A stretch of DNA of 64,000 nt, taken from a virus. Its lineage: Duplodnaviria > Heunggongvirae > Uroviricota > Caudoviricetes. Location: the IMG/VR virus record IMGVR_UViG_2648501802_000002; one strand, written 5' to 3'. This document shows positions 11,322 through 14,011 of this stretch, piece by piece (position 1 is the stretch's first letter; each line of letters starts with the position of its first letter). The notes under the pieces were generated by a model. It was not told the DNA's origin. It did no database searches and saw only the letters and a program-made list of their open reading frames with translations. The position numbers and the translations under genes are program-made.

Positions 11322-11510
11322 GTGGTAGTGCACTTTAACATCGGGAGAATAATCGTGTCATCCAAGGTTAATTATGAGTCGCTGGCATCGGTCATGCCGC
11401 GTAATGAACAGGAAACAGATGCTGTAGTGGACCCTGTAATCGCTGAAATGAATGCTCGCCTGGAGGCTGAATTTGCAGCTGAGAATGAACATACCACCCA
11501 GGGCGACTAG
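11322..11510 (+). CDS. small acidic hypothetical protein
   Basis: Short ORF, probably starting at an internal Met. Confidence 0.25.
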   Translation: MVVHFNIGRIIVSSKVNYESLASVMPRNEQETDAVVDPVIAEMNARLEAEFAAENEHTTQGD

Positions 11511-12114
11511 GACTGTTTTTTGTGTCGGTAGCGGTCCGTCACTCACTCGTGAGGACTGTGCTGCTATAGAAAAAACTGGCTGTTCAATCATCGCGGTTAA
11601 CAATTCCTGGCAGATGTTCGATGACATTTATGCCTTATACGCCGGTGATTTGTCATGGTGGAAGCAATACGGTTCCACCATACCGGGAGGGAGGTTCCGC
11701 AAAGTGACAGCCAACCTGGCGGCGGCGAAATCATTTTCGTTGGAGTACAGGCGATATTGTGGACCGGCGGAAGGGGTAAATAGCGGCGCGCAGGCTATCA
11801 GTCTGGCTGCTGAATCAGGGGCTGAAGTAGTGGTATTAGTCGGCTATGACTGTTCTCTGCAAAACGGCCTTCATTGGCATGGCGCGCACCCTCAAGCACT
11901 ACGGAATCCAACGCAGGTGTCTATTTCAAAATGGCAACAGCAGTTCCTGGATACCCGCAAAAAACACGCAGATTTACATATTTTGAATGCAAGTAGGAGC
12001 AGTGCAATTCAATGTTTCCCAAGAATAAATTTAGAGGCAGTGATCGCGTTATTATCGTCGGCAGTGGCCCAAGCGCCGCAAACTTTGTTGCGCCGCGCGG
12101 AGTGCCGATTATAG
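11452..12114 (+). CDS. MptE-like (DUF115) protein, paralogue 1
   Basis: VFCVGSGPSL...IIAVNN motif; likely start at MNIPPRA (about 11485); 3' end overlaps the next gene by about 100 nt. Confidence 0.4.
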   Translation: MLAWRLNLQLRMNIPPRATRTVFCVGSGPSLTREDCAAIEKTGCSIIAVNNSWQMFDDIYALYAGDLSWWKQYGSTIPGGRFRKVTANLAAAKSFSLEYRRYCGPAEGVNSGAQAISLAAESGAEVVVLVGYDCSLQNGLHWHGAHPQALRNPTQVSISKWQQQFLDTRKKHADLHILNASRSSAIQCFPRINLEAVIALLSSAVAQAPQTLLRRAECRL

Positions 12115-12638
12115 CGGTCAATGGGGCCATCGACTGGCTTAACCGCGCTTCTTATTTTTTCACCCTTGATCCATCCCCAGACAATATGCGGCGCGTTGGT
12201 CGTGGCCGCCGTCGCCGTGGTGTTTGTTATTGCATGGCACTACCCGATGTTAAAGAACGTGAAGTCAGAGATGGCGTTCTGTGCTTCCGTCGTGTGGCTG
12301 AACGCGGCATGGAGCCAAAAAATACGAATTCTCCCGAGTGGTGGGCGTGGCGCTGGTCCGCACATTTCGGCCTTTGCGAAGATGAGAATGAAATTGCCAG
12401 CGGCAATAGTGCATATGGTGCTCTGAACCTGGCTTTCCATATCGGATTCAAACATGTAGCTCTGGTGGGCGTTGACGCTACGCAAGAACCACGCGTTCAC
12501 TCCGGCGGCACGCCAAAAAATCTAAGTCACCTGCCTTTGTTATTCCAGTCTGCGCGTGAACAGATTGACGTTGTTTCATGCGGGAAAATGGGAGGTATTC
12601 CGCAGATGACTCTTAAAGAATGGCTGAAGAATACATGA
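12012..12638 (+). CDS. MptE-like (DUF115) protein, paralogue 2
   Basis: [11 protein letters not shown]...IIAVNGA motif, paralogous to the upstream gene. Confidence 0.4.
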
Positions 12639-13312
12639 TGGCACCCACAATTTATCACCGTATCGACGGTACCAAATACAGGAATGTCTGGGTTGTTGGT
12701 GATCTGCATGGTTGCTACACCAGACTGATGTCCGAACTCCATCGTGTGGATTTTGACCCGGCGCAGGATTTACTGATATCGGTCGGCGACCTTATCGATC
12801 GCGGTACTGAAAATGTCGAATGTCTGGAACTATTGCAGATGCCCTGGTTCAGGGCAGTGATGGGGAACCATGAGCGGTTGATGCTCGATGCGTTAAGTCC
12901 TGATGGCAACGTGAATAACTGGCTAATGAATGGCGGACAATGGTTCTTCATGCTGGACACTGATCAGGAAATATTAGCCTGGGCGCTGGTGGAGCTGGTA
13001 AAGCGTCTGCCCTATATCATTGAGTTGAACACCGGGCAAGAAACTATCGTTATAGCCCATGCCGACTATCCGGATAATGAATACCAATTCGGTAAGGAGG
13101 TGCCGCTTTTCAACGTTGTCTGGGCGCGCGAGCGTATCAGTGATTCGATGGATGATATTGGTGGCGAAATTTCGGGCGCAGATCGTTTTATCTTTGGTCA
13201 CACTCCGGTGAAAAACCCGAAGACATTCTGGAATCAGCAGTATATCGACACTGGTGCCGTATTTTGCGGAAACCTGACATTGATGAAAGTGAAAGGTGAT
13301 GGTGCAGCATGA
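12620..13312 (+). CDS. Ser/Thr protein phosphatase (lambda-phosphatase family)
   Basis: GDLHG, GDLIDRG and GNHE metallophosphatase motifs; corresponds to the P1 ppp position. Confidence 0.65.
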
Positions 13313-14011
13313 AGATTGCTTTAGTTTTTCGCTCTGGTGGTGACTATAACGCTTCCGATGTGCAGTGGCTGGTTAATCAACTGCCAAAAGGCTATGAAAT
13401 TATTTGCCTGACAGACCTGAAGCGTTTACATGTACCTGGCGTCAAAGTTGTCCCATTGATCAACCAGTGGCAAAAGTGCCGTGGCTGGTGGGCGAAAATA
13501 GAGTTGTTCCGACCGGATATAACCGATGATCTGTTCTATCTGGATTTGGACACGGTTATTGCCGGTGATATACGCCCAATCCTAGAGCATCCACCAACCA
13601 GCTTCACCATGCTTAGGGATTTTTACCATCCACAATATCGTGGCAGCGGTGCCCTGTGGATACCAAATAGTGTTAAAGCGCATATCTGGAGTTCATTCTG
13701 GCAAGATCCGGAAGGTTGGATTTCTCGTTGTGTCACTACTGAGTGCTGGGGGTGACCAGGGGTTCTTACGAAAGGTTATGGGCGATGATACACCAGCATT
13801 TCAGGATCTGTATCCAGGATGGTTTGTAAGTTACAAGGCCGATGTTGTGGAACCTGGTTCAAAATATGCGAGCGCGCGTTACTCCAGGGGGAATGGGGCA
13901 TTACCAAAGGACTGCCGAATAATCTTTTTCCACGGCAAACCGCGACCTCGCGAAGTGTCAGAGGATTGGCTTCCCCTTATCAGCTCGTTTTTTGAGCGAG
14001 AATCAGAATAA
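13309..14011 (+). pseudogene. glycosyltransferase-like gene split by a +1 frameshift at a G5 tract
   Basis: ORFs 13309..13755 and 13640..14011 overlap in different frames; G-run 13748-13752; removing one G by hand joins ...ECWG to DQGFLRKVMGDD; LDLDTVIAGD is DxD-like. Confidence 0.5.

Follow-up and report, generated by a model that had tools for sequence, protein, structure and literature searches.

The 64,000-nucleotide (nt) stretch of viral DNA analyzed here (the window; IMG/VR record IMGVR_UViG_2648501802_000002, Caudoviricetes) contains, between positions 11,452 and 14,011, four genes that an initial annotation had read as a possible modification module: two overlapping MptE-like paralogues, a Ser/Thr phosphatase and a glycosyltransferase-like gene broken at a run of five G. 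These genes correspond to pmgO, pmgP, ppp and pmgQ of bacteriophage P1. On balance, and with moderate confidence, we favor the reading that pmgO, pmgP and pmgQ form a mobile glycan-building cassette within a late-expressed operon, that the acceptor of the glycan is most likely a virion or surface protein, that ppp lies outside of the cassette, and that the break in pmgQ is an artifact.

Over the 5.5 kb surrounding pmgO-pmgQ, nucleotide identity with P1 (AF234172 / NC_005856) is 99.0-99.1%, with the same genes, gene order, overlaps and C1 operator, and other P1-like phages match the region at high identity in the same range. The region is also matched by 1080 plasmid records and by 1067 of 5426 complete E. 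coli genomes (547 of which cover at least 80% of the query), where the matches sit on plasmids almost without exception. By sequence comparison, the stretch is a P1-like phage-plasmid. Gene names were transferred from the P1 annotation (in order: pmgL, pmgM, pmgN, pmgO, pmgP, ppp, pmgQ, pmgR, pmgS, pap), and the region holds the pmgN-pmgO-pmgP-ppp-pmgQ operon, which C1 represses; the deposited P1 genome named these genes, with the label 'putative morphogenetic function'. The counterparts in phage P7 are hdmB, hdmC, ppp and hdmD.

The genes and their annotation were known already, and they would belong to the phage-encoded glycosylation genes. RefSeq and PHROGs label them 'alpha-2,3-sialyltransferase' and 'glycosyltransferase', and the annotation pipeline PGAP labels a gene of this region in some P1-like plasmids 'motility associated factor glycosyltransferase family protein'. 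In the literature searched on pmgO, pmgP and pmgQ, on DUF115 or Maf proteins in phages, on prophage glycosyltransferases acting on the lipopolysaccharide (LPS) core and on virion glycosylation, we found no functional study, only essentiality tables and transcriptome mentions. What is new is the definition of three of the genes as a mobile cassette, with gene fusions as support, the finding that Ppp, PmgM and Pap do not belong to it, the assignment of PmgQ to GT8, and the recognition that the frameshift in pmgQ is private to the window and probably artifactual.

pmgO, pmgP and pmgQ across phages and bacteria

Comparison of loci shows that pmgO, pmgP and pmgQ travel as a conserved and horizontally mobile functional unit, found in phages of Gram-negative bacteria that include lambdoid, HK97-like, virulent and jumbo phages. 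Homologues of pmgP and pmgQ, the core members, occur together in every locus with enough flanking sequence, and pmgO is present in most; gene order varies, and pmgO and pmgP frequently overlap or abut, as in P1. In a lambdoid prophage of Citrobacter rodentium the cassette lies after the lysis genes and before the terminase, while a lambdoid prophage of Alloalcanivorax has the order pmgP, methyltransferase, pmgQ, pmgO. The major capsid gene of a Pseudomonas HK97-like prophage is followed by pmgO, pmgP, pmgQ, a fourth glycosyltransferase (GT)-like gene and the head-closure genes; an Ochrobactrum HK97-like prophage carries only pmgP and pmgQ, preceded by the major capsid gene and one gene of 194 amino acids (aa) and followed by the head-closure genes. 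E. coli phage IME392 has the order pmgO, pmgP, GT4-like gene, pmgQ. All three genes are found in Zhongshania, Brevundimonas and Sinomicrobium genomes, pmgP and pmgQ in Methylophilaceae and Buttiauxella loci, and pmgO and pmgP in a Microbulbifer contig that ends just past pmgP. An exhaustive profile search of the PmgP family returned 691 representative clusters (116 at E <= 1e-30), and a scan of viral contigs with the same profile returned P1-like loci only.

The members of the cassette have also been joined into single proteins on several independent occasions. PmgP and PmgQ are fused in both orders (P-Q and Q-P), in a Q-P-methyltransferase protein whose last domain is S-adenosylmethionine (SAM)-dependent, and PmgP is also fused to a TylF-like methyltransferase at its N-terminus (P0298, P0368, P0383, P0350, P0385). 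A podovirus-like contig encodes PmgO and PmgP as one 376-aa protein (P0051, locus L051, 8001-9131), and in the Xanthomonas jumbo phage XacN1 pmgO and pmgP are followed by a pmgQ fused to a TylF-type O-methyltransferase gene. Recurring additional partners, namely a second GT-A-like gene, a GT4-like gene and TylF-type or SAM methyltransferases, point to glycan assembly. In a 247-kb phage-like contig, a GIY-YIG gene, probably a homing endonuclease, sits between pmgO and pmgP (L053, 8552-9166, minus strand). In XacN1 (ORF373 and ORF372; L159, 5630-10220), we also observed a 1088-aa protein with a PKD/Ig-like domain after the PmgQ-methyltransferase fusion.

Cassette genes are found on bacterial chromosomes as well. 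In Pseudescherichia (L139-L143; for instance L139, 235-14419), genes resembling pmgO, pmgP and pmgQ lie interspersed, on both strands, among Big_1 adhesin genes, which encode a 1178-aa inverse autotransporter/invasin (IAT_beta and seven Big_1 repeats) and another three Big_1 proteins. There were no phage genes among the open reading frames (ORFs) examined at these loci, which may be adhesin glycosylation islands. A pmgO-like gene of Serratia adjoins two Big_1 genes. On a Serratia plymuthica chromosome locus (L153) and a metagenome contig (L156), positions ~7700-10600 hold a holin gene, pmgQ, pmgP, a lysozyme gene and a spanin gene; such lysis-cassette remnants on chromosomes, next to fimbrial operons, suggest that the Q-P pair was kept after prophage decay.

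The phosphatase gene has a different history. Ppp (12620..13312, plus strand; its stop overlaps the pmgQ start as ATGA) is by sequence a clear lambda/NinI-type metallophosphatase, as initially annotated: it matches PF00149 (Metallophos) at 59.1 bits against a cut-off of 21.5 and phrog_246 (NinI-like) at E 1e-112. It belongs to the same family as lambda NinI and E. coli PphA and PphB, the P1 annotation giving 64% identity to the lambda phosphatase, but it scores under the NCBIfam equivalog cut-offs for PphA and PphB (PRK11439, 273 bits against 326). Ppp accompanies the cassette solely in P1-like elements and was not seen in cassette loci outside them; phage D6 has 90% DNA identity to the ppp region, yet no PmgP match by tblastn. 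Ppp is best described as a co-transcribed phosphatase of the P1 lineage, inserted between pmgP and pmgQ. Of the modification module first proposed, the part made of pmgO, pmgP and pmgQ is thus upheld, as a glycosylation module, by co-occurrence and fusions, whereas Ppp, the VRR-NUC protein PmgM and the HAD phosphatase Pap accompany it in P1-like loci only. We rejected a pathway joining these three proteins to the cassette, as they are P1-lineage neighbors.

Folds and predicted activities

pmgO (11452..12114, plus strand, 220 aa), the accessory paralogue, and pmgP (12012..12638, plus strand, 208 aa) share 103 nt, read in different frames, and both products carry a V/IGSGPS ... IAVN motif near the N-terminus, in agreement with what had been noticed from the sequence. 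Homologues of PmgO are 180-200 aa long and conservation begins near residue 20, so the true start of pmgO may be the ATG at 11485. A pairwise BLASTP comparison of PmgO and PmgP detects a stretch of 36 residues only (14/36 identities, E 0.003), and the paralogy is therefore distant. The initial annotation had named a failure of this similarity in alignment as a possible refutation; it holds at the profile level, where hhalign of the PmgO family (33 sequences) against the PmgP family (63 sequences) gives a probability of 98.1% (E 7.9e-14, 164 columns), PmgO and PmgP each match the PHROG of the other, and a joint alignment contains invariant P, N, D, S, G and D columns. We consider the assignment of the two as paralogues of the MptE/DUF115 type solid at this level.

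PmgO and PmgP were modelled separately with AlphaFold (pLDDT, the predicted local confidence score, of 86 and 95), and both models retrieve the same structures in a fold search. The models share a Rossmann-like fold with Maf and MptE: PmgP, like its distant paralogue PmgO, shows the nucleotide-binding fold known from Maf flagellin glycosyltransferases, from GT42 sialyltransferases and from MptE. Maf (PF01973; 5mu5) is a protein of ~630 aa with flanking domains, whereas PmgO and PmgP, at ~200 aa, correspond to the central catalytic domain only; unlike for Maf, no flagellin or nonulosonic-acid biosynthesis genes were found near pmgO and pmgP. Against the GT42 enzymes Cst-I and Cst-II of Campylobacter jejuni, the PmgO-family profile does not reach significant sequence similarity (E 0.19 with Cst-II), and the weak alignment falls on the GxGPS nucleotide-binding loop and an SG...GxD segment. 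A sequence search of the PDB with the PmgP profile gave no matches, a search of NCBIfam gave none for PmgO, PmgP or PmgQ, and a fold search of BFVD returned uncharacterized MptE-like viral proteins only.

The third gene of the cassette, pmgQ (13309..14011, plus strand), is a single ORF of 702 nt in P1 and is split in the window into 13309-13755 and a remainder in the +1 frame that runs to 14011. The suggestion that it encodes a DxD glycosyltransferase is borne out by a PmgQ-family profile of 109 sequences, which matches the GT8 structures of Skp1 alpha-galactosyltransferase (6mw5, E 2e-7), glycogenin (1.8e-6) and GlyE (5gvv, 1.1e-4), with the DxD (FYLDLDTVI in the window), GDQG and C-terminal HG.P motifs in register. 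Within the family, D79 and D81 are invariant and G148, D149, Q150 and H208 are conserved at 90% or more. PmgQ is shorter (~230 aa) than the GT8 enzymes, a family that also includes WaaO and WaaJ. From these alignments, PmgQ is predicted to be a retaining GT-A hexosyltransferase of the glycogenin-like GT8 type.

Donor, acceptor and alternative functions

In the mechanism that we propose, PmgP, often together with PmgO, would transfer a sugar from a nucleotide-activated donor made by the host, PmgQ would add an alpha-linked hexose, and the three proteins would together assemble a short glycan on an acceptor macromolecule made during lytic growth. To our knowledge, E. coli K-12 makes no CMP-sialic acid, and the sialyltransferase label is therefore very unlikely to describe the real donor. 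As genes for donor biosynthesis are missing beside the cassette and only Gram-negative hosts were seen, the cytidine monophosphate (CMP) ester of 3-deoxy-D-manno-octulosonic acid (Kdo) would be a natural candidate in hosts that lack a sialic-acid pathway. The sole hint of a Kdo donor is a faint precomputed Pfam match to WaaZ_KDO_III on the PmgO-PmgP fusion protein, which was not reproduced in Pfam scans of each of 33 PmgO-family and 63 PmgP-family members.

The evidence leans toward a glycan on protein or the envelope rather than on DNA, and the most likely acceptor would be a virion or surface protein. A protein is favored because the cassette lies between capsid and head-completion genes in two HK97-like prophages, because cassette genes are associated with Big_1 adhesin genes in Pseudescherichia and Serratia, because Maf is a protein O-glycosyltransferase, and because the enzymes of solved structure that lie closest to PmgQ work on glycans linked to protein. 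A comparable case is that of mycobacteriophages, in which glycosyltransferases encoded in the structural operon modify capsid and tail-tube proteins. In both cases the glycosyltransferase genes lie within or beside structural genes and are dispensable for plaques; the analogy is functional only, as the hosts differ and presumably the enzyme families do too. We know of no glycosylated virion protein in P1.

Several observations weigh against this reading. PmgO and PmgP of the window match Pfam MptE-like (PF01973) at 23.4 and 20.9 bits, under the gathering threshold of 34.6; such sub-threshold matches recur in 32/33 members of the PmgO family and 63/63 of the PmgP family, and a distant relative (P0338) clears the threshold at 44.1 bits. 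P1 PmgQ has no match to the Pfam GT8 family (PF01501) at E <= 1, and 15 of its 109 relatives have weak ones (best E 0.005). MptE and thiamine pyrophosphokinases are also among the top fold matches of PmgO and PmgP, so that the fold alone cannot tell a glycosyltransferase from an ATP-dependent pyrophosphokinase. CMP-Kdo is put forward purely by reasoning, the association with adhesins is limited to two lineages, and the cassettes of IME392 and XacN1 have genes of DNA metabolism, not structural genes, in their vicinity. In P1, pmgO, pmgP, ppp and pmgQ are all non-essential according to a published essentiality table, and the cassette genes are dispensable for plaque formation. Finally, the cryo-electron microscopy (cryo-EM) paper on the P1 virion, in which the tail fibers are unresolved, mentions no glycan and does not list any of these proteins among the components of the virion.

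Alternatively, the cassette could modify the host envelope, adding Kdo or hexose to the LPS core, the receptor of P1, and so hide the receptor on infected cells and on debris, or keep superinfecting phages out. Every host seen is Gram-negative, lambdoid prophages carry the cassette in a moron position after the lysis genes, pmgP and pmgQ persist in the chromosomal lysis-cassette remnants, and the WaaZ match would fit, although it did not recur among the family members. GT8 does include LPS-core glycosyltransferases, and one paper relates GT8-like phage enzymes to WaaJ and WaaO, but the structures matched by PmgQ were glycogenin, Skp1 galactosyltransferase and GlyE, and LgtC-type LPS enzymes were not among them. 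Expression would moreover come late, as the P1 operon is repressed in the lysogen and the cassette sits inside the head-gene block of HK97-like prophages, leaving little time to remodel the outer membrane. We consider an envelope target unlikely.

The strong fold matches to MptE and thiamine pyrophosphokinases raise another alternative, in which PmgO and PmgP would be ATP-dependent pyrophosphokinases acting on a small molecule or nucleotide, with Ppp and Pap in a pathway of phosphorylation and dephosphorylation. We find this very unlikely: the conserved and fused partner of these proteins is a glycosyltransferase and not a phosphatase, the genes that recur beside them encode further glycosyltransferases, and methyltransferases of types to which sugar O-methyltransferases belong, Ppp and Pap do not occur beyond P1-like elements, and the motif alignment is to the sialyltransferase Cst-II. 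Glycosylation of phage DNA as a hypermodification against restriction is more improbable still, to the point of being nearly dismissed: P1 DNA, which is not known to be hypermodified, has been used for decades like any other restriction substrate, with methylation and the Dar proteins as its protection (the latter covered in the P1 virion cryo-EM paper), and no genes for base hydroxymethylation or other precursors accompany the cassette in any locus examined, including the flanks examined in small temperate prophages, even if GT8-like phage glycosyltransferases have been reported to extend glycans on 5-hydroxymethylcytosine in DNA and the cassette adjoins ligase, PolX and ribonucleotide reductase genes in IME392 and XacN1.

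A protein-directed cassette could be extended to a more ambitious and, at present, doubtful proposal. pmgO-pmgP-pmgQ would be the prototype of a widespread and undescribed protein O-glycosylation system of phages of Gram-negative hosts, in which a Maf-like pair uses host CMP-Kdo and a glycogenin-like transferase adds hexose, decorating tail fibers or capsid and, on chromosomes, adhesins with Ig-like domains.

The operon in the window and its homopolymer insertions

The cassette of the window is preceded by pmgM (10710-11288) and followed at some distance by pap (15649-16155), which domain searches confirm as a VRR-NUC protein upstream and a HAD/PNKP-type phosphatase downstream, both as initially proposed. 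Mapping of the P1 annotation by alignment places a predicted sigma-70 promoter, PpmgN, at 11256..11282 (plus strand) and the C1 repressor operator Oppp (formerly Op83) at 11295..11311 (minus strand). The operator is identical in sequence to that of P1, and its presence places the operon under prophage repression. The -10 hexamer of PpmgN begins with a C in the window (CATGCT, against TATGCT in P1; changed base at 11277), next to the unchanged C1 operator. The first gene of the operon, pmgN (11355..11510, plus strand; phrog_2350, E 1e-45), is a small ORF that overlaps the annotated start of pmgO. In a P1 table obtained by CRISPR interference (CRISPRi), it is listed as essential by CRISPRi and non-essential by knockout, and the CRISPRi result may reflect polarity within the operon or off-target action on it.

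Beyond pap, the window departs from P1: a type I restriction-modification locus replaces pmgT-pmgU-pmgV, beginning with the restriction gene hsdR (1038 aa, 16420-19536 on the minus strand and onward). In the nearest plasmid, hsdR is followed by hsdS and hsdM, then phd/doc. The junction between pap and hsd is a known swap point, as the P1 record notes its homology to sequence downstream of hsd loci.

The frame break at GGGGG (13748..13752) exists in the window but is not a feature of the gene family. The extra G creates a TGA at 13753-13755, immediately 3' of the run, and P1 has G4 at this site, as do 78/78 related loci; among viral contigs the G4 version was found 48 times and the G5 version 0 times. 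A 71-nt query centered on the run was fully identical to 0/500 E. coli and 0/494 plasmid records, and the best matches listed all span 70 nt. The insertion falls in the codons TGG GGT GAC CAG GGG TTC (W-G-D-Q-G-F), that is, in the conserved GDQG motif, and parts the DxD motif from GDQG and the C-terminal His. If the G5 run were real, PmgQ should be inactive, as the truncated product lacks both of these.

Compared with its nearest complete relative (NZ_CP076303), the window carries isolated +1 homopolymer insertions at 6382, 13748, 15562, 19599, 31270 and 35343, and a further one probably lies at 888. The insertion at 6382 (+1 G/C in the run 6381-6386) frameshifts gene 6 (minus strand, about 6192-7209), whose frame is intact in the nearest plasmid. 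Gene 6 encodes the baseplate hub according to the P1 virion cryo-EM paper and is essential in the P1 essentiality table, and its frameshift suggests either assembly errors or a defective prophage. The insertion at 15562 (one extra T in a run of T close to the 3' end of pmgS, 14313-15665) gives a product of 450 aa, against 420 aa in P1, that overlaps pap. With several such insertions in the window, one of them breaking an essential gene, we propose homopolymer over-calling during assembly: the G5 run appears to be a private +1 insertion and most probably an assembly error. Weighing against an artifact, the frame breaks could be those of a decaying prophage.

A genuine mutation, or a phase-variable switch turning pmgQ off in this element, seems to us a rather unlikely explanation of the G5 run. 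Homopolymers are the classical substrate of slipped-strand mutation and the loss of a non-essential gene such as pmgQ would be tolerable, but the run length is constant across the 78 related loci, ~1000 E. coli and plasmid records lack a G5 match, runs of four or five G are too short for an efficient contingency locus, and the window holds other such insertions, including the one that destroys the hub gene. A programmed frameshift or phase-variable switch at the run as a feature of the family is unsupported, with neither variation in run length nor a conserved two-frame arrangement. The broken pmgQ of this window should be given no biological interpretation before a check of the reads.

Few phages have been used as heavily in genetics as P1, and P1-like phage-plasmids are common, with about one fifth of the complete E. 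coli genomes searched matching part of this region and about one tenth matching most of it. The cassette provides a concrete hypothesis, open to testing, for a family that counts several hundred sequence clusters, and corrects the database names 'alpha-2,3-sialyltransferase' and 'phosphohydrolase', which are misleading. If the target is a virion protein, these would be phages that glycosylate their own particles in Gram-negative hosts, with a bearing on host range, on the immune recognition of therapeutic phages and on the stability of transducing particles. Should the broader proposal of a phage protein O-glycosylation system prove true, the virions of P1 itself would be glycosylated.

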